DNA of 63,987 nucleotides, filler included, from Nemertoderma westbladi (Eukaryota; Animalia; Xenacoelomorpha): assembly GCA_032718475.1 (NCBI GenBank). It is 3 parts of 3 records of this genome, joined end to end, with 100 filler letters (N's around TTAATTAATTAA, not from the genome) between each part and the next. Parts side by side here need not be neighbours in the genome. Positions count along the whole stretch, not along the records: positions 1 to 20,528 come from JAUCBJ010000167.1; 2 more parts are not named here. One strand, given 5' to 3'. Below the pieces are notes generated by a model. That model was not told the DNA's origin. It made no database searches and saw only the letters and a program-made list of their open reading frames with translations. A program made the translations under genes and the position numbers. Positions 7,696 to 46,017 of this stretch are shown here, piece by piece (the first letter of the stretch is position 1; every line of letters begins with the position of its first letter).

Positions 7696-8073
7696 CAGGT
7701 TCTTGAGATATGGAGTATTAATTTCAAAGCCAGCTGCCATTTTATTAGCCCCTGAGTTTTTGATTATTGATAGTAACAATGTGTTGGCAAGCTGATGAGA
7801 CCCAGTAAGGTCGAAACGCGTACGTGGTTTGGAGAGATATGAGATATTAATTTCAAGAAAAATTACGCGATTCTTAAATTTGTACACTACCTGGTTAAAA
7901 AGTACGCATGTGATGGGATTAGTCCTCCAATTGCGCCAATAAAAGATAAGTTATTTTCGGTAAAATAAACTTATCAGTCGAGGCAAAGACCCCTAGATCC
8001 CTTCCTATAATAAATGTATAATAACAAACACCTCGAAAAATACAGCTTGCCAACACATTGTTACTATCAATAA
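7696..8073 (+). mobile_element. Truncated copy of the 416-bp hammerhead element with inverted 5' segment
   Basis: 7696-~7794 is the reverse complement of the 3' part of the 33549-33964 unit. From 7792 the forward copy starts at CTGATGAGACCCAGTAAGGTCGAAACGCGTACGTGG, and the 5' strand of stem I is lost at the junction. Confidence 0.9.
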
Positions 8074-9076
8074 CCAATGTTTTATTACCGAGTTCCAATG
8101 CGGTAACGACCGTTGCGTTCCTACCGACTGGATTTGCGACAGAGACGGGTGTAAACGTTACGCCGACAGCCGACAACCGACACTCAAAAACCGACAACCA
8201 ACAACCGGCAACCGACAGTCGAAAACCGACAACAGACAGCCGACAACCAAATCCGAAAACCATTATTAACGGTAATTAAATAACAACAATAAAAAGAGCA
8301 ATTTGGAGAAGAAAAATATTCATAAACTGTTCGTGCCTTGTATTCTTTTAAACTCTATACTTTATAAAATAAATTAAGTGTGCATTATTTAAGATAATGA
8401 ACTATATTTAACACCGAAATAAGATTATTAAATACACTACCAATAATTTAAAGGTCACGCATGGGCCGGTCACGTCGCGTTTCGGCAACTGTCTCGTTTA
8501 GGCAACTCAAATTCGCGTTTCGGCAACTGAACAACTACGTTTCACAAACTGCTATATTTGTGTTTCGGCAACTCGTTATTGCATTTCGGCGAACTGAAGT
8601 CGCGTTTCGGCAACTAGGTGACAAACCCGCGTATGTAATGTAACTGTGACTAACATGTTCATTATGTAAGTAAATGATAAATGGTGACAACTTTAAGTTA
8701 GTTATAGTTTTGACGGCAGAGTTGTTAACTATTTGAGTTAGTTAGTTAATTTTAGGTCGTTTATATGTGTACATTGCCAGTTTGCACATGTGGCAGTGAT
8801 AAAATATGATTTTGTGTTCTGATTGATAAATGTATAATTTTTTTCCATCCGTGACGCTGGACAGCTGTTACTCAAACTAACCTAAAATTAGAATCATTGT
8901 ACAGTACGCTCTCCATTTTGGGCTCAAACTGATCCTGAGAGATGTGAGATTCTAAATAAAATAACTCTATCGACTGAGTCGAACGCGAGTTGAAAAACCA
9001 AAATTGAAAAGCGGAATAGATAAACAGTACTGTATGGATTAATATCAGATTGAATTATAATATCATTAATAATATA

Positions 9077-9274
9077 TAATATTATGGTTTTGTTCAGAAA
9101 TGGAAAAAATGAGAAAGCGCGTCACCGGGGGTTGACAAAAGTCACAAGTGGCTGAACTGGTTAGCGCGACTGATGAGGCTTGATAGGCTGAAACGTACTG
9201 TACGTATAGCGCTGGTTCAACCCCGGTGACGCGCTTTCTCATTTTTTCCATTTCTGAACAAAACCATAATATTA
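9077..9274. repeat. Near-perfect ~58-bp inverted repeat enclosing the family B hammerhead
   Basis: TAATATTATGGTTTTGTTCAGAAATGG...CACCGGGGGTTGA (9077-9135) is the reverse complement of 9217-9274, apart from one extra G. Confidence 0.92.
9163..9213 (+). ncRNA. Type I hammerhead ribozyme (family B)
   Basis: AGCGCGA-CTGATGA-GGCTTGATAGGCT-GAAAC-GTACTGTAC-GTA-TAGCGCT. Conserved core, stems I-III can pair (one mismatch in stem I), GUA cleavage triplet. Confidence 0.85.
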
Positions 9275-10324
9275 CATCTTTAATTACAGTTGCAACAGCT
9301 TAACTCCAATTTATCATTAATAATATCGAATGAATGCTCATTCAGGCTTACTGGTACAATGATTACATCATACAATGATACATACATAAAATGAAGAATA
9401 CCAGACTTTCTGCCGTTATATTTCACTTTGCAGTTACCCCCATGTGAAGAATACCAGGTTTTCACCAAAAACACAGGTTACAGAAGGGCTGAATCTAACC
9501 AAAACAATAACACCCCCCCCCCCCCCCCCCCCCAACAGCCCCCCTAATTTTTCTACAAATCTTAATGAGATTTCATGAAATTTGAAACAGGGATTATTTT
9601 CATTTCCCGACCTCTTACTGGGTGAGCCAGAATTTAAATTTTTGCTTTCAATCTTTAGCTACAAACGTTTAAAAAAAGTGTTCCCACCGCAGCTATTCTT
9701 CTACCTTATAGCTGTTAGTTGGTACTGCTAGAAAGCTGGCCATGCAAGGATTCCAAATATGTAGCACAACCTGAATTTCGTTAAAAAATAGCTGAGGCGG
9801 GCGTTCAAAAGTTGCATGGTTTTGCATCAGCGCCAGGCTATTTTATACTATTTAATAAATACACCATATTCTTAAAACAAATACAAATTATTCATATATA
9901 AAAAACTGTAATATACAATACATCACTGAAAAGTGAAAACTGTCGGTTGTCTGCTGTCGGTTGTTGGCTGTCGGTTGTCTGCTGTTGGCTGTCGATTGTC
10001 GGCGTAAAGTTTACACCCGACGGAGACGAGGATTGCCAGGATTCTTCGGATGAAGATAACTGCCAACACCAACTCGGTTAGTAACGCAATATTAATTATA
10101 CAATTAACACTTCTTCTTCCTAAATTAACTATGAGGTTTGAACTGTTACAGTCCGGCCACTGAAAAATATACAATTCGTTTTTAGATTTCGATGATCAAA
10201 AGTAGATAAATTATATTGGCGTCAAAAAAAATGGTATCCATAACTTCAATTATTTGTCTAGTCTAGAACATAGCCCATACGTAATTATTTATTAAATTAG
10301 GAACTCATCACACCATTCATACAC

Positions 10325-10816: not shown

Positions 10817-11055
10817 GTTTTGAACTCATTACGATCATATTAATAACTTCTCCAGCATTTACCACTTGCTATAATCCTCCTATAATCTTCCTAAAATTTT
10901 GAAAATATTATTTAGCTACGTAATTAGTGAACACTTAATTTCCAAATTGTGAACAGTCTGAGGTGAAACTTAGTAAAAAAAATTTGAAATTGGCTGCAGT
11001 TCCGTGTGCCACTACACTAACAATGGCTACATTTCAGTGTGCCACTACACTAACA

Positions 11056-11253
11056 ATAGTAACAATGTGTTGGCAAGCTGTATTTATCGAGGTGTTTGTT
11101 ATTATACATTTATTATACTGTATAATTTGTACACTACCGGTTAAAAAGTACGCATGTGAAGGAATTAGTCCTACCATTGCGCCAATAAAAGATAAGTTAT
11201 TTTCAGTAAAATAAACTTATCATTCGAGGTTAAGACCCCTAGATCCCTTCCTA
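11056..11253 (+). mobile_element. Third fragment of the 416-bp hammerhead element (inverted + forward, no ribozyme)
   Basis: 11056-~11117 is reverse complement of the unit; ~11123-11253 is forward (AATTTGTACACTACC...GACCCCTAGATCCCTTCCTA). It lies within 33-bp satellite units. Confidence 0.85.
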
Positions 11254-11280
11254 CAGTATACTACACTAACAATGGTAATA

Positions 11281-20738: not shown

Positions 20739-22596
20739 GGATAGTACTCTACACGAATCTGGACCGAACTGGATCGAAAGAGAGGCGAACTGGACCGAAC
20801 TGTACCGCCAAATGAAAGATAATGCAAAAACAACCACCCATGCAGACAAGTGAAAATAAAATATTGAAATAAATATTGTTATTTCATCCATTGTAAATAA
20901 AATAGCGTATAAGATGCCGCTAAATTAAGATTACTTCTTCTAACATTGATGTTGCACTGCTTTCACCAGTACCGGTACCAGTCCCACACCTGCATGTCTG
21001 TAGATTGCAGTATTTTGTGCACCGGCTGACCGGTAGTTCAAAAGTTGTGTTCAATGACATGTAGAGAGACCTACCACATAATACTGCAATATACTCATAT
21101 ACATACGTAACATTATTATCTTTACCATCTTTATTTTTCTAAAATTAAGCTCACTTAGCAGCTTAGTACTGTAGTGTTCGCATCACAGGACCATCGTCGT
21201 TTGGTTGACTGGGGTCATTCATAAATATGATATATGAATGGGTGCTGGTTCCAGCGTACTTCCATCGCCATTCACGACAACTCACATTCCCAAACGCAAC
21301 ATGTTCTAAATTCGTTGTCGGATATTCGCCAACCGTATTTCCCGATAGGCCTAGTTGCTCCGGACTACCGCCACTTGGACTTGAGTTGCAAATAAAGTTT
21401 ATTAATTCCTTGGTACTTCGGCTACCGGTACCGTCTATCATTGCTGCATTGTTCAATTATCCGTTACATTGCATCAAACATAATTTGGCCCTTAACCAAA
21501 CAAGCAGAAATTCAAATAAGTAGGCATACCGGCAACCGGTACTGAATTACTCCAACCAGTATATACGTCTAGGCTGCTAGGTGCAGAGATACTACTGTAC
21601 TACAGTACTAAGCTGCTAAGTGAGCTTAACTAGATTGCACGTGCCAGGTTAGGCAGTTAGGGTGGCCCAAAAAAGTTCGTGTGATTATTTCTTGAGATAT
21701 TATACCTAGATATCTCGATATCGATAGGCCTAGATAGATATCTCGAGATATATATTCTCCAAAAGTTGAATTTTAAATCCTACGCCCAGACTACAAAACA
21801 TGAATTATAATAAAAAGTTTAATTTTAAAAAATAAAGATGGTAAAGATAATAATGTTACGTATGTATATCAGTATATTGCAGTATTATGTGGTAGGTCTC
21901 TCTACATGTCATTGAACAGAACTTTTGAACTACCGGTCAGCCGGTGCACAAAATACTGCAATCTACAGACATGCAGATGTGGGACTGGTACCGGTACTGG
22001 TGAAAGCAGTGCAACATCAATGTTAGAAGAAGTAATCTTAATTTAGCGGCATCTTATACGCTATTTTATTTACAATGGATGAAATAACAATATTTATTTC
22101 CATATTTATTTTCACTTAGATAGATTTATTTATACATTATGTAAAAACAATAACAAATACACCAAACAATGTACCGGTATAAAGGTATTGTCCAACATAA
22201 CATATAGGATTACCCCTAAAGCTTTGCAGCTTATTTCCAAGGGGGTCCTTTATGTTACTTGGTTACAAATACAATATTACACTACGTTAACCTAAAACCA
22301 ATATAAAACGTAATTACACTATGTACTGTACATGTACAACTTTACCGAGAGCGTGACAATGCCCGACTCAACGATAAAGATGTAATGTACAGAACAATTT
22401 ATTATAAAACGTAATTACAGTATAAATAGTAAATAATTAATAAACTAATAACTTACTGTAGGACTATTGTAGGACTTGTCTGCATGGGTGGTTGTTTTTG
22501 CATTATCTTTCACTTGGCGGTCCAGTTCGGTCCAGTTCGCCTCTCTTTCGATCCAGTTCGGTTCAGTTCGGTCCAGATTCGTGTAGAGTACTATCC
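20739..22596. mobile_element. Non-autonomous Mutator-like element with ~400-bp TIRs, inserted in satellite
   Basis: Ends GGATAGTACTCTACACGAATC / GATTCGTGTAGAGTACTATCC; 9-bp TSD GATATTCGG (20730-20738, 22597-22605). The right TIR is interrupted by an insert at ~22118-22474. Confidence 0.88.
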
Positions 22597-25500
22597 GATA
22601 TTCGGAGTTGAACCAAGGTTCACTGTGTTTCAGCTCTTGTCTACTATTGTGTGTAGAGAGATGTTTGAAGGTAGATTTATCTAATAGTTGTTTCTTTGCG
22701 ACATTCGGAGTTGAACCAAAGTTTACTGTGTTCCAGCTCTTGTCTACTATTGTGTGTTGTAGAGAGATGTTTGATAGTAGATTTATCTAATAGTTGTTTC
22801 TTTGCGACATTCGGAGTTGAACCAAGGTTTAATGTGTTCCAACTCTTATCTCTTATTGTGTGTAGAGAGATGTTTGCTAGTAGATTTCTCTAATAGTTGT
22901 TTCTTTGCGACATTCGGAGTTGAACCAAAGTTTACTGTGTTTCAGCTCTTGTCTACTATTGTGTGTAGAGAGATGTTTGAAGGTAGATTTATCTAATAGT
23001 TGTTTCTTTGCGACATTCGGAGTTGAACCAAAGTTTACTGTGTTCCAGCTCTTGTCTACTATTGTGTGTTGTAGAGAGATGTTTGATAGTAGATTTATCT
23101 AAGTTGTTTCTTTGCGACATTCGGAGTTGAACCAAGGTTTAATGTGTTCCAACTCTTATCTCTTATTGTGTGTAGAGAGATGTTTGCTAGTAGATTTCTC
23201 TAATAGTTGTTTCTTTGCGACATTCGGAGTTGAACCAAAGTTTACTGTGTTCCAGCTCTTTTCTACTATTGTGTGTTATAGAGAGATGTTTGATAGTATA
23301 TTTCTTTAATAGTTGTTTCTTTACGACATTCGGAGTTGAACCAAGGTTTAATGTGTTCCAACTCTTATCTACTATTGTGTTTAGAGAGATGTTTGCTAGT
23401 AGATTTCTCTAATAGTTGTTTCTTTGCGACATTCGGAGTTGAACCAAAGTTTACTGTGTTCCAGCTCTTATCTACTATTGTGTGTTGTAGAGAGATGTTT
23501 GATAGTATATTTCTTTAAAGTTGTTTCTTTGCGACATTCGGAGTTGAACCAAGGTTTAATGTGTTCCAGCTCTTGTCTACTATTGTGTGTAGAGAGATGT
23601 TTGCTAGTAGATTTCTCTAATATACTTGTTTCTTTGCGACATTCGGTGTTTGTTGAACCAAGGTTTACTGTGTTCCAGCTCTTGTCTACTATTGTGTGTA
23701 GGGAGATGTTTGCAAGTAGATTTCTCTAATAGTTGTTTCTTCGCGACATTCGGAGTTGAACCAAAGTTTACTGTGTTCCAGCTCTTGTCTACTATTGTGT
23801 GTAGAGAGATGTTTGAAGGTAGATTTATCTAATAGTTGTTTCTTTGCGACATTCGGAGTTGAACCAAAGTTTACTGTGTTCCAGCTCTTGTCTACTATTG
23901 TGTGTTGTAGAGAGATGTTTGATAGTAGATTTATCTAAGTTGTTTCTTTGCGACATTCGGAGTTGAACCAAGGTTTAATGTGTTCCAACTCTTATCTCTT
24001 ATTGTGTGTAGAGAGATGTTTGCTAGTAGATTTCTCTAATAGTTGTTTCTTTGCGACATTCGGAGTTGAACCAAAGTTTACTGTGTTCCAGCTCTTTTCT
24101 ACTATTGTGTGTTATAGAGAGATGTTTGATAGTATATTTCTTTAATAGTTGTTTCTTTACGACATTCGGAGTTGAACCAAGGTTTAATGTGTTCCAACTC
24201 TTATCTACTATTGTGTTTAGAGAGATGTTTGCTAGTAGATTTCTCTAATAGTTGTTTCTTTGCGACATTCGGAGTTGAACCAAAGTTTACTGTGTTCCAG
24301 CTCTTATCTACTATTGTGTGTTGTAGAGAGATGTTTGATAGTATATTTCTTTAAAGTTGTTTCTTTGCGACATTCGGAGTTGAACCAAGGTTTAATGTGT
24401 TCCAGCTCTTGTCTACTATTGTGTGTAGAGAGATGTTTGCTAGTAGATTTCTCTAATATACTTGTTTCTTTGCGACATTCGGTGTTTGTTGAACCAAGGT
24501 TTACTGTGTTCCAGCTCTTGTCTACTATTGTGTGTAGGGAGATGTTTGCAAGTAGATTTCTCTAATAGTTGTTTCTTCGCGACATTCGGAGTTGAACCAA
24601 AGTTTACTGTATTCCAGCCCTTGCCTACTATTGTGTGTAGAGAGATGTTTGCTAGTAGATTTCTCTAATAGTTGTTTCTTTGCGACATTCGGAGTTGAAC
24701 CAAGGTTTACTGTGTTCCAGCTCTTGTCTACTATTGTGTGTTGTAGAGAGATGTTTGCTAGTAGATTTCTCTAATATACTTGTTTCTTTGCGACATTCGG
24801 TGTTGAACCAAGGTTTACTGTGTTCCAGCTCTTGTCTACTATTGTGTGTAGGGAGATGTTTGCAAGTAGATTTCTCTAATAGTTGTTTCTTCGCGACATT
24901 CGGAGTTGAACCAAAGTTTACTGTATTCCAGCCCTTGCCTACTATTGTGTGTAGAGAGATGTTTGCTAGTAGATTTCTCCAATAGTTGTTTCTTTGCGAC
25001 ATTCGGAGTTGAACAAAGGTTTACTGTGTTCCAGTTCTTGTCTACTATTGTGTGTTTTAGAGAGATGTTTGCTAGTAGATTTCTTTAATAGTTGTTTCTT
25101 TGCGACATTCGGAGTTGAACCAATGTTTACTGTTTTCCAGCTCTTGTCTACTATTGTGTGTAGAGAGATGTTTGCTAGTAGATTTCTCTAATAATTGTTT
25201 CTTTGCGACATTCGGAGTTGAACCAAAGTTTACTGTATTCCAGCCCTTGCCTACTATTGTGTGTAGAGAGATGTTTGCTAGTAGATTTCTCCAATAGTTG
25301 TTTCTTTGCGACATTCGGAGTTGAACAAAGGTTTACTGTGTTCCAGTTCTTGTCTACTATTGTGTGTTTTAGAGAGATGTTTGCTAGTAGATTTCTTTAA
25401 TAGTTGTTTCTTTGCGACATTCGGAGTTGAACCAATGTTTACTGTTTTCCAGCTCTTGTCTACTATTGTGTGTAGAGAGATGTTTGCTAGTAGATTTCTC

Positions 25501-27347
25501 TAATAGTTGTTTCTTTGCGACATTCGGAGTTCAACCAAGGTTTACTGTGTTCCAGCTCTTGTCTACTATTGTGTGTTGTAGAGAGATGTTTGCTAGTAGA
25601 TTTCTCCAATAGTTGTTTCTTTGCGACATTCGGAGTTGAACAAAGGTTTACTGTGTTCCAGTTCTTGTCTACTATTGTGTGTTTTAGAGAGATGTTTTCA
25701 GGTGGATTTCTCTAATAGTTGTTTCTTTGCGACATTTGGAGTTGAACCAAGGTTTACTGTGTTCCAGCTCTTGTCTACTATTGTGTGTTTTAGAGAGATG
25801 TTTTCAGGTAGATTTCTTTAATAGTTGTTTCTTTGCGACATTCGGAGTTGAACCAATGTTTACTGTTTTCCAGCTCTTGTCTACTATTGTGTGTAGAGAG
25901 ATGTTTGCTAGTAGATTTCTCTAATAGATGTTTCTTTGCGACATTCGGAGTTCAAACAAGGTTTACTGTGTTCCAGCTCTTGTCTACTATTGTGTGTTGT
26001 AGAGAGATGTTTGCTAGTAGATTTCTCCAATAGTTGTTTCTTTGCGACATTCGGAGTTGAACAAAGGTTTACTGTGTTCCAGTTCTTGTCTACTATTGTG
26101 TGTTTTAGAGAGATGTTTTCAGGTAGATTTCTCTAATAGTTATTTCTTTGCGACATTTGGAGTTGAACCAAGGTTTACTGTGTTCCAGCTCTTGTCTACT
26201 ATTGTGTGTTGTAGAGAGATGTTTGCTAGTAGATTTTTCTAATAGTTGTTTCTTTGCGACATTCGGAGTTGAACCAAGGTTTACTGTGTTCCAGCTCTTG
26301 TCTACTATTGCGTGTTGTAGAGAGATGTTTGCTAGTAGATTTCTCTAATAGTTGTTTCTTTGCGACATTCGGAGTTGAACCAAGCTTTACTGTGTTCCAT
26401 CTCTTGTCTACTATTGTGTGTTTTAGAGAGATGTTTGCTTGTAGATTTCTCTAATAGTTGTTTCTTTGCGACATTCGGAGTTGAACCAAGATTTACTGTG
26501 TTCCATCTCTTGTCTACTATTGTGTGTTTTAGAGAGATGTTTGCTAGTAGATTTCTCCAATAGTTGTTTCTTTGCGACATTCGGAGTTGAACAAAGGTTT
26601 ACTGTGTTCCAGTTCTTGTCTACTATTGTGTGTTTTAGAGAGATGTTTGCTAGTAGATTTCTCTAATAGTTGTTTCTTTGCGACATTCGGAGTTGAACCA
26701 ATGTTTACTGTTTTCCAGCTCTTGTCTACTATTGTGTGTAGAGAGATGTTTGCTAGTAAATTTCTCTAATAGTTGTTTCTTTGCGACATTCGGAGTTGAA
26801 CCAAGGTTTACTGTGTTCCAGCTCTTGCCTACTATTGTGTGTAGAGAGATGTTTGCAGGTAGGTTTCTCTAATAGTTGTTTCTTTGCGACATTCGGAGTT
26901 CAACCAAGGTTTACTGTGTTCCAGCTCTTGTCTACTATTGTGTGTTGTAGAGAGATGTTTGCTAGTAGATTTCTCTAATAGTTATTTCTTTGCGACATTC
27001 GGAGTTGAACCAAGGTTTACTGTGTCCCTTCTCTTGTCCACTATTGTGTGTTTTAGAGAGATGTTTGCTAGTAGATTTCTCTAATAGTTGTTTCTTTGCG
27101 ACATTCGGAGTTGAACCAATGTTTACTGTTTTCCAACTCTTATCTACTATTGTGTGTAGAGAGATGTTTGCTAGTAGATTTCTCTAATAGTTGTTTCTTT
27201 GCGACATTCGGAGTTGAACCAAGGTTTACTGTGTTCCAGCTCTTGTCTACTATTGTGTGTTGTAAAGAGATGTTTACTAGTAGATTTCTCGAATAGTTGT
27301 TTCTTTGCGACATTCGGAGTTGAACCAATGTTTACTGTTTTCCAGCT
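22597..27347. repeat. 103-106-bp tandem satellite with higher-order structure (also 20629-20738 and 32195-32525)
   Basis: Unit GCGACATTCGGAGTTGAACCAAGGTTTACTGTGTTCCAGCTCTTGTCTACTATTGTGTG(TTG)TAGAGAGATGTTTGCTAGTAGATTTCTCTAATAGTTGTTTCTTT. An 836-bp block is duplicated (identical ORFs at 23112/23948 and 23424/24260). Confidence 0.97.
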
Positions 27348-31738: not shown

Positions 31739-32700
31739 TCGTGCGTAATCTCTTCGTAATACCATATGCATATGTGAAATTTTGTACATTGTTTTTACTG
31801 TACCAATATTTTTGGTTTAATAAATTATATTATAAACAATTGTAATATTAATTAAGCGTTTTCCAGGAGGTATTTTTTTAAAAGTTTAGTAAATGTATGT
31901 TTTGATTTGGAAGCCCGAATATTTTCGGGCAGGTCATTCCAAATTTTGACTCCCTGAAATTTAAATGAGCGGTGCGCGACTAAGAGACGGACATTGGGGA
32001 AATAGTAATTTTTTGATGTTGTCGCTCTCGTGTTATATGTGTGGATTTCTGAGACCTTAGAAAATAAATTTGACAGATTAGATTTGTCGAGATTGTTGGA
32101 TATATCAAACATTGCCGAAGCTACTTGCTGTATGTACAGCTTTTCAATTGGAAGAATTCCTAGCTCTTTGTAGACTGGAGTTGCCGAGGATCGGCAGCTC
32201 TTGTCTACTATTGTGTGTTGTAGAGAGATGTTTGCTAGTAGATTTCTATAATAGTTGTTTCTTTGCGACATTCGGAGTTGAACCAAGGTTTACTGTGTTC
32301 CAGCTCTTGTCTACTGTTGTGTGTTGTAGAGAGATGTTTGCTAGTAGATTTCTCTAATAGTTGTTTCTATGCGACATTCGGAGTTGAACCAAGGTTTACT
32401 GTGTTACAGCTCTTGTCTACTGTTGTGTGTTGTAGAGAGATGTTTGCTAGTAGATTTCTCTAATAGTTGTTTCTTTGCGACATTCGGAGTTGAACCAAAG
32501 TTTACTGTGTTCCAGCTCTTGTCTATCGACCGAACTATAGAGGAACCGGAACCGAACATGGCAATTTTTAAATTTTGATTGTGTTGAATTGTCTATGATT
32601 TTTGTAAGTGTTATTGTTCAATTATTACATTACTTATTATCTTGTTATGATTTGAATCAATATTTTCCATTATTAATCCACTCCATTACTTTCTATATAG

Positions 32701-33182: not shown

Positions 33183-33556
33183 CTGTAATGTTTGTAAGAA
33201 ACGTTTATCCACTTCCGGTGATATTGTTGGACACAGATAAACTAAAATTCTGTATGTAGTTAGTTGTAGATTATGATAATTAAATTTAAAAACAGTTAGA
33301 TTATCAGAAGAAATTTAAAGAACCAAATATTTACATTAACAACATTATAACATTATATTATCGCGAAGTGTGAAATGGATGTGGGGAAAGTTGGATATAT
33401 GTAAATCAAATTGATTCCTGATCATTGATAGTAACAATGTGTTGGTTGGCAAGCTGTATTTATCGAGGTGTTTGTTATTATACATTTATTATAGGAAGGG
33501 ATCTAGGGGTCTTAACCTCGAATGATAAGTTTATTTTACCGAAAACAACAAGAACC

Positions 33557-33612
33557 TGTGGCCTAGTGGTTGTAGTCTCGGCTTCCACCTCGAGGTCCCA
33601 AGTTCGAATCCG
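33557..33612 (+). promoter_or_regulatory. tRNA-like head with Pol III A and B boxes (also 33973-34028, partial from 34389)
   Basis: A box TGGCCTAGTGG; anticodon-like arm CTCGG-CTTCCACC-TCGAG; B box AGTTCGAATCC. Confidence 0.75.
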
Positions 33613-33614
33613 AC

Positions 33615-33657
33615 ACCACGCTGATGAGACCCAGTAAGGTCGAAACGCGTACGTGGT
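33615..33657 (+). ncRNA. Type I hammerhead ribozyme (family A, copy 1)
   Basis: ACCACG-CTGATGA-GACC-CAGTAA-GGTC-GAAAC-GC-GTA-CGTGGT. Perfect 6-bp stem I, 4-bp stem II, palindromic minimal stem III ACGCGT; predicted cut after 33651. Confidence 0.92.
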
Positions 33658-34030
33658 TTGGAGAGATATGAGATATTAATTTCAAGAAAAATTACGCGGT
33701 TCCTAAATTTGTACACTACCCGGTTAAAAAAGTACGCATGTGATGGGATTAGTCCTACAATTGCGCCAATAAAAGATAAGTTGTTTTCGGTAAAATAAAC
33801 TTATCATTCGAGGTTAAGACCCCTAGATCCCTTCCTATAATAAATGTATAATAACAAACACCTCGATAAATACAGCTTGCCAACCAACACATTGTTACTA
33901 TCAATGATCAAAAATCAGGGGCTAATAAAATGGCAGCTGGCTTTGAAATTAATACTCCATATCTCAAGAACCTGTGGCCTAGTGGTTGTAGTCTCGGCTT
34001 CCACCTCGAGGTCCCAAGTTCGAATCCGAC

Positions 34031-34073
34031 ACCACGCTGATGAGACCCAGTAAGGTCGAAACGCGTACGTGGT
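34031..34073 (+). ncRNA. Type I hammerhead ribozyme (family A, copy 2)
   Basis: Identical to 33615-33657, 416 bp downstream. Confidence 0.92.
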
Positions 34074-35659
34074 TTGGAGAGATATGAGATATTAATTTCA
34101 AGAAAAATTACGCGGTTCCTAAATTTGTACACTACCCGGTTAAAAAAGTACGCATGTGATGGGATTAGTCCTACAATTGCGCCAATAAAAGATAAGTTGT
34201 TTTCGGTAAAATAAACTTATCATTCGAGGTTAAGACCCCTAGATCCCTTCCTATAATAAATGTATAATAACAAACACCTCGATAAATACAGCTTGCCAAC
34301 CAACACATTGTTACTATCAATGATCAAAAATCAGGGGCTAATAAAATGGCAGCTGGCTTTGAAATTAATACTCCATATCTCAAGAACCTGTGGCCTAGTG
34401 GTTGTAGTCTCGGCTTCCACCTCGAGGTCCCAAGTTCGTAAAACTGTCTCTGTTTCAAATTTTGCCATTTTATTATTACTAACAAATATTTTTAAGACGC
34501 CGTATACACGATGTTCTAGACGCAGAGTAAAAAAATAATACCTTGAATATAAAATAACATAAAATCACTTGAAAAAGGTTCAATAAAGAAAATGAAAAAT
34601 GAATATTTGTAAAGTCTTTATTTGTTCAACCAAATTTTATATATTTGGTATCTGGTGAAGCTCTTTATCAATTTTATCTCATATTACTTGACATTCTATG
34701 ATCGATATAAGTTGATGGCAATGAAACCATCAAATTCCCTTGTGCCTTTAGTACAGTTGACAGTCACTATACTTTACTACAGTACTAATACGATTATTTT
34801 TCAATTTACGCTGTCAGTCTGACTGTGCCCGGTCCGATCACCTCTAATTTCAACAACCGGTAGGGTCTAGGTACTGTATGTGGATGTACATCAGCAGTAG
34901 GCATACAGTACATGGCTTTTTGCCTTTACATGATTTTACACAAAATGCCCTTTTACATCCGAAAAGTAATGTATATGTTTTTGTACAAAAATCACATCAG
35001 GCCTTAATAATATGAAAATGGGAGACATTGTCAGGAATCCGCATGCATAAATGCCCTTTTGCCTTTTTACCGACGATTTGGCTGCAAGGCATGGATCAAC
35101 CTGAACATGCGACTAGTGAATAGACTTTGCAATTGCATTAAGGTAAACCCTAAGCAAACGTGGATACACTTTGAATATTAATTAGGGTTTGGGCCGCCAC
35201 TCGAGTGAGATGAACTGGAGCTAGGATCTGCTGAAGCCGATTAAGGACTAACGAGTTTCAGGGCCTCCACCTGCATTTGACCTACAGTACTGCAGTAACA
35301 GTACAGTGTGACTGTCTGTTTATTGTTTTGGTTAGAAACGCCCGCCTCTGTAACCTGCTCCTTTCCCTCAATTGGTAAAGATGCCGTTTATTTGTTTTGG
35401 TTAGACAAGCCTGCCTCTGTAACCTGCTCCTTTCCCTCAATTGGTTTATGGCGTGTGTTACTTATTTATGAAAAAAAAATGTTTATGAAAAAAAAATTAA
35501 AAAAGTGTTTCATAAAATAAGCGGTAGGGCCTACATATAAAAGTGTTTCACAAAATAAGTTGTAGGGCCTTAAAAGTTTTTCATACAATGGTCCCCAAAG
35601 GAGGCCCCCAAACACGTTCATCCCGCCGATTATAATTAATCAAAGGCTACCAATTAAAG

Positions 35660-42917: not shown

Positions 42918-45495
42918 CTAGTTCGTTCCACCTGACTTTGGGAACCATCTCCAGTCCTTCCCTCTGTCGTCCTCTTTTCTTGGTCGTTTCCTGGCCGCTG
43001 CTGCTCCCTTGGTCTTATCTCCCTTCAGGCTCTTGACCCTCGCCGTCACCTCTCTACTAATCCCGGTCGTCGACTCCTTGGGCGCTGGTGTTATTAGCTC
43101 CCGATATCGCTTCGCGGGTGGCCCCTCCGAGTGGCCCTGTTGTCTCCCCCTGGTGGCGTCCCATAGGATCACTTTCATCACCCGTGGCACATGCTCCGCC
43201 AAGAAATCTCTGAACTCCCCTCTGTTCTGTGGCATCCACCTGTCCATTTATCACCCCGGCATACGACGCCGCCGTCGCTACCTCCTGGTAGGTAAACAGA
43301 CGTCTCCATTTGATAATCTCCAAGTGGGCCTCCTGGTTGATATTAAAGAAGCCCCACCGGAACTCCTGGGCCTTCATACGTTGCCGAGTCATGGCCCCGA
43401 TGTCGGCCCACTCCTCGAAGATCCTAAACTTCTCTTCGTCGTCCATCCAGTCGCACTGGCGTCCGTAGTGCCCCCGGAAGTTACACTTCGAACACCGGTT
43501 GTGCAACCGTGGACACGCCCCCATCCTGTGGCTCAACTCGCGGCAGTAGAGACAACTAGTCCCTTTCTGGAACCGGTACAGACAGCTCCTTTCCTGGTGG
43601 GTTTGCCTCCCACAGTAATCATAGCCGAGCACCAATGTCTCCCGCCCCACGTCGTCTTTTGTCCCAAGCGATCTCCGCGGTCTGTGGAGTCGCTGGTAAG
43701 CGAACTTTTGGACATTAGCGTCCCTTTCCACGTCTATCTTCTCGCACCTCCCGGGCATCGTCTCCCCGAATACTACCCGTGGTGCCGTTCCCGGTTGCTC
43801 GCCCAACCTGATGGTGCTCCCCGCGAAATCCATCGTCGGCTCCTCATGCACCCAGGCCCGCTTGCCGGGTCTATCCCAGAAGGCCCTCGCCCCACTGGCC
43901 GTCACCACCCTCCCGCCAACCCAGTCCGTGTCCGAGTGGCCGATTCTCCCGATGGGCGGCATCTCTCCGAACTCGTCGTCATCCTCGTCCTCCTCTGGGA
44001 GTGGCTCCAACCCCGGTATCCCGGTGGACCCACTGCGTCCCTTCCCACCTTGGCTCTCGCCCGTGACTTTCCATCCTTCCAGCTCCCCTAGCCTCCTTAG
44101 CGGGTGATTGCCCTCGGTGCCCGCTGGTATGGGCGTCGTCTGCAATCCTGATGTCGACTGTTTCGGTGATTCCACCGTCCACCCTAATTCTCACCCTAGA
44201 GACTCCCCCGAACTCCCTGATGACGTCCAACGAAGTTCGTCTAAGGCCGCCTGTTCCTCGAAGCCGTAGCTCTGCCCTCTAGCTTCTTCCTCCCTTTCCT
44301 CTGCCTCTCTCCTTTCCTCTCTAGCGATTTCTTCCAATCGCTTCGCTTCTCGTCTATCCGCCTCTAGCTGCTCCCATCTCTGATACGGCGTATCCACCTC
44401 CCCGTCTACCAGATGTCGGCAGTTATAGTACACCGACTCGCCCTTCAGCCCCGGGTGGTCTACCAGACCCTCGAAAGCCGTCTTGAAGGCTCTTCTGTAG
44501 TTCAGGGGTGATCCCGATAGCAGGAATGCCGTTGGTTCTTTCCCAATGACGATGGTCATGAATAGGTTTAGCAAACCCATCATTATCCAGTCCTCCTGCA
44601 GGATATATCGCTTCTGATATACCTTTATCGCTCCTCTCCGGAATTGATACACCTCTTGTTTCCCTGGCCTCGCTCCCCACTTCAGCGAGTTTGCCAACTC
44701 CGCTCCGTACTCCTCTCTGAACTTACTCCAGTCCATTGGTTTGTGACACACGAGCCCCATTAGCTGGCCCATCGCCACCGCTCTACAATGGCCTGAGTTC
44801 TCCACTAGTCCCAACCCGTCTGGTGCTGTCATAGCCATGTAGACCGTCTGCATGTCCAGGATGTTGGGGGTGTCCGGACCGATGATTCTCTCCGCATCGT
44901 CGCGGATCGCCGATCCCACCTTCGTCGTTGACTTCTCTCTCACTAGGATTTGCACCGCCTTTGGCAACCGGTTCAACTTCAGCCCGTTCTTCTTTCCATA
45001 CGTCCCTAGATCGAATAGGAATATATCCCCATTTGGCGCGGCCAAATGTAGGAGTATGGTTCTGGCCAACCCCGCCGATCCTCTCCTCAAACCTTCCTCG
45101 TCTTCCACAGTCCCCTCATCGTCTAGGACCATGTATCCTCCCCTGCTGATGGACTCTACGAACCTCTTCCAATCCTTTCTCGGTGGCTCCTTCGCGTACT
45201 TCGGAATCCCGAACTTCGCCTCGTCTCCCTTCACCACGTAGTGGAAATGCTCGAAGATCGCATTGTCCAGCGACGGCGTCCCGTAGGTCCCGACCAGCCG
45301 CTGTTCGTGCACCTTCCTGAAATGGTCCTCTAGCGCTCGCGCTTTGTGACCTCTCTCTAACCGCTCGTAGTATCCCCTCGTCTTCTCTTCCGGATGCCTC
45401 TCGGTGAAATCCACCAGTATCTCCTTTCCTCCTAACTCCGCCTTTCTCTTTCGGACAAGTTTCTCTGCCATCTCGAACTCTCCCCAATGGCTCAC
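42918..45495 (-). pseudogene. DEDDy-type 3'-5' exonuclease + coiled coil + CCHC knuckles; one in-frame TGA and a probable frameshift
   Basis: MVLDDEG...LLHLAAPNGDIFLFDL...LPKAVQILVREKSTTKVGSAIRDD...ILDMQ resembles the WRN/EXD2-like exonuclease. ORFs 44191-45495 and 43057-44175 share a frame. CLYCRELSHRMGACPRLHNRCSKCNFRGHYGRQC knuckles. Confidence 0.65.
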
Positions 45496-46017
45496 CCGTT
45501 AGGTGGTGCCTTGCCAAGGCGCTGTACGGATGAGTGATAAAGTTAGGATGGTTTATTCAGTTCGATAATGGCCTATTTCTCCCAGAAACCTAAGTTATAG
45601 CCTAATTTTCCTAACTAATTTTCTAAAACTACCAAATTGTACTAAATTTCGCAATTTTGTCCGTTACTTTAATTATGTTCCAGAATATTTTCCTACTGTT
45701 ACCATCATTTGTCTAATTTCTACCTTTTATTTTATTTTAATTTAATTCAATCCTACTACTGTGCTACTACTTATTCCTGCCAATGGATTATTCTATTTTA
45801 TAATCCACATTCTGGCCTACTCTGTGGGCTTGTGCAGTACAATAGTATGGGTCGCGTGGCCTACACGATTTATCCAGCTGTACTCACGTGCCCCCCTCTC
45901 GCTACTCACTACTAACTAATACTTATATTATACATACCCTTCTACCACTAACTCTTACTAACCGGTACTACATACCCTCTTACTAACTTCTAACTCCACT
46001 AACTCTTACTAACCGGT

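Follow-up and report, generated by a model that had tools for sequence, protein, structure and literature searches.

A high-copy, probably Penelope-type repeat of Nemertoderma westbladi with a hammerhead motif between putative A and B boxes

The window, by which the whole 63,987-nt stretch of DNA analyzed here is meant, contains Integrator subunit 10 and TRAPPC9 pieces, LINE-type reverse transcriptase (RT) ORFs and many satellites, as well as a neighboring pair of minus-strand ORFs (377 and 435 aa; 43057-45498) without a Pfam match in a GC-rich stretch. The insertion under study occupies positions 9076-9311 and is composed of an inverted 59-bp copy, a short filler and a forward unit of ~170 bp that belongs to a high-copy family, designated family B. 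The insertion and the element around it have the following features:

8147-10018, no strand assigned: non-autonomous DNA transposon around the insertion; its 77-bp TIRs are imperfect, and one mismatch separates the two copies of its 9-bp duplication (8138-8146 / 10019-10027)
9061-9075, plus strand: left copy of the target-site duplication, an exact match to 9312-9326
9077-9135, minus strand: inverted 5′-truncated copy of the unit, corresponding to 9216-9274 and without the tail
9136-9142, no strand assigned: junction filler specific to the 9076-9311 copy, with a depth of 0 in four of four sequencing runs
9143-9311, plus strand: forward unit of family B, about 170 bp, with sharp ends in contigs
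9275-9311, plus strand: probable Penelope-type tail of 37 bp, at one end only; copies end at about 9277 or 9311
9312-9326, plus strand: right copy of the target-site duplication, beginning exactly where other family B copies end

A fold-back of ~200 bp with inverted repeats of ~58 bp had been predicted from the sequence and was borne out: the arms 9077-9135 and 9216-9274 are 59 bp in length with 54 nt identical, and their fold-back has a z-value of -15.3. The limits of 9077-9274 that had been given for the element were wrong, as the forward unit continues to 9311 and a direct repeat of 15 bp (9061-9075 / 9312-9326) flanks the insertion. This repeat occurs twice in the whole window and nowhere else in it, and the chance of such a repeat within 30 nt is about 2e-6. 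The boundaries set by the direct repeat mean that the right arm is followed by 37 bp that have no mirror. No source of the filler was found nearby.

Other copies of family B were read from contigs of five sequencing runs (X1-X5) that were placed on the locus; five of the seven runs listed contain part of the stretch, and no RNA run is listed among these. The contigs placed on 9143-9311 numbered 1,608 in X1, 921 in X2 and 77 in X4. The summed depth of these contigs, which is not a copy number and is used for boundaries and relative shape only, was 0 at 9136-9142 in X1, 18,470 at 9143-9149, and 49,000-66,000 over the 5′ half; toward the 3′ side it was about 200,000 over 9241-9296, 111,720 at 9304-9310, and 68 at 9318-9324. 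The depth of the family is hundreds of times that of the flank and thins out toward the 5′ end. The 5′ start lies at 9143-9145, with a depth of 0 before 9143. Fourteen of 25 listed records, the longest having been kept with 2,668 others outside this list, start at 9144-9150; the deepest X4 contig starts three letters before 9145, and several listed records include hundreds of bases of low-depth flank upstream of the start (records 9 and 14 of X2; record 19 of X4). Loose contig ends place one 3′ end at 9311 (34 X1 and 31 X2 contigs) and a second at about 9277 (20 X2 contigs), where the long records 9, 13 and 14 also leave the family. Family B is an abundant, high-copy, non-coding repeat of ~170 bp whose copies look dispersed.

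Among eight listed joints, three are inversions, each at different points, and five run from inside the hammerhead motif described below to a T-run. A search for tandem copies had been proposed; in the three DNA runs, these eight joints include no head-to-tail junction. The five joints into the T-run skip from 9179-9199 to 9242-9244, most with 5-16 extra letters, and are possibly template switches at the U-run. A two-part origin of the unit with its junction at the T-run was ruled out, as depth climbs gradually over 9220-9254 without a step. In a second set of joints, 11 of the best 15 of 41 concern the insertion itself and connect arm to body; caution is needed with these, as both arms attract the same contigs.

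The transposon at 8147-10018 also carries 7-bp subterminal repeats and is Mutator-like by the usual rule for such elements. Nesting of the insertion in this transposon, as originally proposed, is supported by the coordinates, but not by an empty target site, with no joint across the insertion among the best 15 of 41 joints. Flank depth in X1 was about 1,500 upstream of the insertion and 33-85 downstream, a difference of about 20-fold, and therefore the interior of the transposon is not one uniform host family. At 9392-9500 there is a very high-copy repeat with 53-bp internal periodicity, the copy in the window being without the first ~8 bases of the others.

Penelope-like insertions are described as 5′-truncated, often with a truncated copy in inverted orientation 5′ of the unit and with a one-sided tail of 30-40 bp (PMC8557442); the tail has been tied to two RT start sites, and targets are AT-rich (PMC11167929). 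Family B insertions show an inverted 5′-truncated copy that varies among copies (three of the eight listed joints), a tail of 37 bp, and two 3′ ends at about 9277 and 9311. As the inverted copy, one-sided tail and two 3′ ends match the published features, family B is very probably a Penelope-type non-autonomous retroelement. A GIY-YIG partner was not detected in the 10 ORFs scanned of the 38 listed in the window. The original prediction of a second Penelope/retrozyme family stood with respect to the Penelope-type anatomy; head-to-tail units of the retrozyme type were not apparent in the eight joints listed. The same prediction had named fixed TIRs combined with loss of the core as evidence against it, and instead the copies keep the core and their junctions vary.

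The forward unit includes a hammerhead motif composed of the following elements:

9163-9213, plus strand: type I hammerhead motif, identified by a core-plus-three-helices rule and by family variants
9163-9169 / 9207-9213, plus strand: stem I of the motif
9170-9176, plus strand: core CUGAUGA, read directly from the sequence
9177-9189, plus strand: stem II of the motif
9190-9193, plus strand: GAAA of the hammerhead core
9193-9205, plus strand: stem III of the motif
9204-9206, plus strand: GUA, with a cut after 9206 predicted from the motif

The hammerhead motif that had been noticed here was confirmed by its core, GAAA and GUA elements. A loose core pattern was observed eight times in the window against 3.1 expected, and the core-plus-three-helices rule was passed at three places, namely the 9170-9206 motif and two units of a separate family, designated family A, which is represented in the window as follows:

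7696-8077, no strand assigned: family A copy (at 7788) that starts at the core and is without the 5′ strand of stem I, from sequence comparison
11044-11273, no strand assigned: family A insertion of Penelope type (piece 11058-11259) with a 14-bp duplication, from sequence comparison
33549-34438, no strand assigned: family A unit of 416 bp, tandem with an inverted 5′ piece; A- and B-box-like stretches precede its hammerhead

The sequences of the two families are unrelated, the units having in common only the core word of 8 nt and two words of 7 nt that match by chance, which is in keeping with the earlier view that two ribozyme-bearing families are present. In the family B motif, C3-A9, G12-A14, A15.1, U16.1 and H17 are present in order, and three helices surround the 13 core positions, all of which are in register. 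The core-adjacent pairs of this copy are A-U at 1.1-2.1, G.U at 10.1-11.1 and A-U at 15.1-16.1. The copy has flaws: the G.U pair replaces G10.1-C11.1, stem II includes a U.G pair, and the second pair of stem I is a G/A mismatch. Taken alone, the motif of this copy folds no better than its shuffles (z -0.19 to 0.06). The covariance-model check that had been suggested did not recover the motif, as the Rfam hammerhead models gave no match to it at E-values up to 10. At the Rfam gathering threshold there were no matches in the window; family A reached an E-value of 4.7e-5 with 26.6 of 52 bits, which also is below threshold.

Variation within the family is more informative on the fold. CUGAUGA and GUA showed no variant of 2% or more in any of four runs, and core changes at 9192 and 9193 were restricted to two single X4 contigs at 2-3% of depth. 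All four changes seen in stems I and II (9168, 9180, 9189 and 9208) create standard pairs, which favors a real ribozyme fold at the family level as judged from sequence. Position 9180 is C in 29,661 of 29,958 X1 depth (99%), turning U.G into C-G, and position 9189 is C in 1,181 of 1,530 X4 depth, giving G-C at 10.1-11.1 in 77%. The G.U pair at 10.1-11.1 accounts for 96-98% of X1 and X2 depth, the majority form of which also carries G/A as a mismatch in stem I. In the deepest contig of X4, G-C at 10.1-11.1 is combined with a pair at the mismatched stem I position, and 18 X1 contigs have both a fully paired stem I and G-C at 10.1-11.1. Non-canonical pairs are reported to be tolerated at 10.1-11.1 (PMC3088659). 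The commonest form of family B may be weak as a ribozyme. The longer stem III that had been described is present in this copy, but is not a family trait: a stem III shorter by 5 nt accounts for 20,833 of 23,623 X1 depth at 9203 (88%) and 4,554 of 6,312 X2 depth (72%). The shorter stem is a perfect 8-nt palindrome with a self-duplex energy of -9.8 kcal/mol and no hairpin; a palindromic, weak helix III is of the dimer type of metazoan PLE hammerheads (PMC4209133).

The hammerhead motif is flanked by candidate promoter elements for Pol III and followed by a T-run:

9149-9160, plus strand: putative A box of a tRNA-type (Pol III type 2) promoter, an exact consensus match; its middle is the distal 5′ strand of helix I
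9214-9224, plus strand: putative B box, an exact consensus match that also is the distal 3′ strand of helix I
9242-9247, plus strand: T6 run, Pol III terminator-like, the only run of four or more T in the unit

The patterns applied at the two sites are the general consensus sequences of A and B boxes. The original description of the element had been without a tail, a target duplication and A and B boxes, all three of which were found (9275-9311; 15 bp; 9149-9160 / 9214-9224). Among 100,000 dinucleotide shuffles of the flanks of the boxes themselves, an A-box match arose in 271, a B-box match in 50 and a loose B box in 600, the test having been chosen after the sequence had been seen. In a crude tRNA profile, built from nine tRNAs of retrieved loci with three of nine blocks off register, the A block held rank 2 and the T block rank 160 among 127,894 positions of the window. 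The A-to-B spacing is 66 nt in this copy and 61 nt in the majority form. In the nine reference tRNAs the spacing was 43-46 nt in seven and 61 and 66 nt in two long tRNAs. On the register of the boxes the tRNA +1 position is 9142, with which the family start at 9143-9145 coincides. The hammerhead core then comes directly after a D-arm-like stretch and the cut site just before a T-arm-like stretch, so that the ribozyme motif would occupy the place of the anticodon arm.

The predicted pairing of 9153-9158 with 9214-9219 joins the A box to the B box as distal helix I. Complementarity between the central A-box letters and the B box makes the two matches partly dependent, with selection for helix I alone supplying a part of them. 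The A-box letters outside the paired part also fit the consensus. The Rfam tRNA model scored 13 bits (E 2.8; threshold 29) in another register, 9164-9235, and ARAGORN found no tRNA in the unit at default settings, making a call only once the threshold was lowered. Differences between subfamilies show only a weak tendency to fall outside the boxes and the core (p 0.02; 0.18 with clustered changes counted as one event). The T6 run is kept in the X1 and X2 majority and is T5 in the X4 form. It lies 64 nt before the family end, and thus the RNA that is copied cannot be a normal Pol III product. The unit ends without an A-run or simple repeat. Overall, family B probably possesses a real tRNA-type Pol III head.

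Matches to the boxes were noted elsewhere. A 106-bp satellite (22596-27347 and 32195-32525) has a minus-strand B-box match in most units and supplies 39 of the 41 B-box matches of the window. A tRNA-like head with an A-box-like stretch and a B box (2731-2741) lies at 2685-2760; ARAGORN made no call there and it is probably an ordinary SINE or a tRNA pseudogene. Among the titles and opening abstract lines of the papers searched, no hammerhead between A and B boxes was found; the layout may be recorded in repeat databases or preprint supplements. A scan with a pattern of core plus B box yielded two viral and at least 119 metagenome loci, none of which matches family B (best blastn E-value 0.72). 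Among the 121 scan loci listed, three passed the type I helix rule, all without an A box, and eight contain an A-box-like match. A 124-nt metagenome repeat (L036:2-125), unrelated in sequence to family B, occurs with three different 3′ flanks (L036, L056 and L079). It has a type III hammerhead fold with a GUU triplet in which 11 of 11 hand-set pairs are standard, an A-box-like stretch in loop I and a B box just 3′, the minimum-energy fold being different. This repeat may hint that a design of boxes plus hammerhead arose more than once. Another metagenome locus (L003:369-457) is a tRNA that is class II-like by its long variable arm, with the anticodon GAU and an anticodon loop that resembles the hammerhead core.

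Folding of transcripts was predicted for different 3′ ends, for which one further feature is relevant:

9230-9235, plus strand: strand complementary to 9163-9168, predicted to displace stem I in longer transcripts

For transcripts of the majority form that end at 9247, the predicted probabilities were 0.93 for the A/B helix, 1.0 for stem II and 0.2 for stem I, and stem I was at 0.86 in the fully paired form with the same end. In transcripts that reach 9311, the rival helix between 9163-9168 and 9230-9235 was predicted at 0.99-1.0 in three of three forms. In this copy the rival helix is predicted to win already at transcript ends 9235-9247 (0.77-0.98).

On balance the data are best accommodated by a non-coding retroelement of ~170 bp that would be mobilized by Penelope and transcribed by Pol III from boxes on either side of the hammerhead motif, a model that is somewhat favored. 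In outline, TFIIIC would bind both boxes across the ribozyme motif and Pol III would start near 9142. Most transcripts would stop at the T6 run with a length of about 105 nt, and are predicted to keep helix I, in which the A and B boxes are paired, together with stem II. To form the palindromic stem III, the short RNA would depend on a second molecule and so would cut only as a dimer, probably weakly. Rarer read-through to the tail is predicted to refold the RNA, pairing 9163-9168 with 9230-9235 and switching the ribozyme off. A Penelope protein would start reverse transcription at about 9277 or 9311 on uncut RNA, from which the tail, an inverted copy on the 5′ side and a duplication of AT-rich target DNA would result. 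With a cut after 9206, the A box and the B box would end up on separate RNAs, and the 3′ product, with the B box only, would give rise to promoterless copies. The promoter would thus persist only in copies whose template had stayed uncut. Summed depth in X1, as a measure of relative shape, was 49,000-66,000 on the 5′ side of the cut site vs. 77,000-87,000 just 3′ of it. The 5′ depth is about 60-80% of the 3′ value for X1 and X2 and about 90% for X4, so that uncut RNA would have been the template of most copies reaching the site. Uncut RNA also is the main substrate of a reconstituted Penelope element (PMC11167929). A more elaborate version is put forward tentatively, and its odds as a whole are not high: a tRNA-derived head in which a working hammerhead has replaced the anticodon arm, with the boxes acting both as DNA promoter and as RNA helix, with short transcripts that would self-cleave as dimers, splitting the promoter, and with read-through RNA that would be ribozyme-off and copied by Penelope, might have a built-in limit on its spread.

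The unit might instead be a solo truncated pseudo-LTR of an autonomous Penelope element that is transcribed by Pol II, the boxes being a by-product of the long helix I. The hammerhead, tail and inversion are all traits of pseudo-LTRs, the T6 run is no obstacle for Pol II, and the A and B boxes are partly complementary. This reading is unlikely, as it has to contend with a sharp 5′ start at the tRNA +1 position, past which long low-depth contigs (X2 records 9 and 14; X4 record 19) continue for hundreds of bases, and with A-box letters that match outside the paired part. It is also improbable that each copy is a fragment of a larger retrozyme unit, tandem or circular, whose promoter, split by cutting at 9206, would be rejoined by ligation in circles and multimers only. 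A 371-nt X5 contig (record 25) holds 9203-9314, returns to 9203 after 341 nt and has a 30-nt terminal overlap; it bears another organism label, is only guessed to be RNA and has a depth of 5.5. Family A is tandem in the same window, family B is here a single copy, and short contigs could hide a longer unit. However, head-to-tail joints were absent from the eight listed, the 5′ half of the hammerhead did not align to the X5 contig, and most copies that reach the cut site also have the 5′ half.

A tRNA-derived SINE with a vestigial or accidental hammerhead, in which a cloverleaf at 9164-9235 would use stems II and III as D and anticodon arms, is rather more improbable still. The weak tRNA-model match and the relaxed ARAGORN call both use this register, the helix 9163-9168 : 9230-9235 is predicted to win in long transcripts, and a CUGAUGA loop occurs in the plain tRNA of metagenome contig L003. 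Nevertheless, the register 9164-9235 has no A box, the 13 core positions lie in register with three helices, and subfamilies exist with G10.1-C11.1 and a fully paired stem I. That a SINE was moved by an ordinary LINE, with the inversion caused by twin priming, is very improbable. The 15-bp duplication and 5′ truncation are compatible with any target-primed insertion, and APE-type and RT ORFs (RTE/CR1-like) are present in the window; but the unit end is without an A-rich or simple-repeat stretch, the inverted arm repeats sequence that is kept in the forward part and ends at the tail boundary, and the unit has no match to the LINEs of the window. Finally, near-perfect arms around a short core could denote a MITE whose spacer happens to carry a hammerhead motif, which is the least credible of these proposals: in place of the fixed TIRs and short superfamily duplication of a MITE, the right arm is not terminal and the duplication is 15 bp, inversion points vary among copies, and many copies enter the flanks with no mirror arm reported. 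The non-terminal arm, long duplication and variable junctions rule out a MITE identity.

The one reconstituted Penelope element works without a hammerhead cut (PMC11167929). In the Penelope-mobilized model for family B, the cut site would be inside the promoter and cleavage would have a plain genetic consequence. Genomic copies would record whether the template was cut or uncut, and mostly contain both halves. The unit of 170 bp has natural variants with ribozymes that are predicted to be strong and weak, and promoter, cleavage and mobilization could each be probed in it. If the model is true, one sequence is both a Pol III promoter and a ribozyme helix, and a SINE-like head rides on Penelope rather than on a LINE.

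Comparison with known systems places family B among several kinds of element. With canonical Penelope-like elements it shares the inverted 5′ copy, one-sided tail and 5′ truncation (PMC8557442, PMC11167929), as well as a hammerhead motif with palindromic stem III and a probably uncut template (PMC4209133, PMC11167929). Unlike these elements, it has no ORF, a fixed 5′ start at the boxes and G.U at 10.1-11.1 in the main subfamily. Metazoan retrozymes have been argued to be non-autonomous Penelope derivatives (PMC7229834, PMC7761336, bioRxiv 10.64898/2026.07.22.740005). The non-LTR retrozymes of metazoans resemble family B as short non-coding hammerhead repeats for which monomeric dispersed copies are described (PMC7229834, bioRxiv 10.64898/2026.07.22.740005), but are defined by tandem units and RNA circles, and the sections of these sources that were consulted mention no tRNA-type boxes. 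Helenus, a kind of tRNA-headed non-autonomous LTR retrotransposon, is similar in that A and B boxes are found on a parasite of a non-LINE retrotransposon, but differs in its LTR structure and 5-bp duplication and in that no ribozyme is mentioned in the portions of the report consulted (PMC10886601). Family B resembles SINE2 elements in the tRNA-like spacing of its boxes and in a 5′ end that lies at about +1; in contrast, family B has an internal terminator-like run (T6 at 9242-9247) and neither an A-run nor a LINE-type tail.

Sm-alpha and Sj-alpha of Schistosoma also are short, abundant, SINE-like, non-coding retroelements with a tRNA-derived Pol III promoter and a type I hammerhead (PMC6765202, PMC2770079). 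In these elements, as far as the relevant parts of the two reports indicate, the promoter is followed by the hammerhead and the units are often tandem (PMC6765202, PMC2770079), an order shared by family A in which the boxes precede the hammerhead with a spacing of about 43 nt in tandem units. Family B would function as an Sm-alpha-like element mobilized by Penelope. In family B, by contrast with Sm-alpha, the hammerhead motif lies between the boxes, the boxes are also predicted to form the distal part of helix I, and the copies look dispersed. Judged on the positions of the sequence motifs, what differs from the Sm-alpha kind is the nesting of the hammerhead between the putative boxes.
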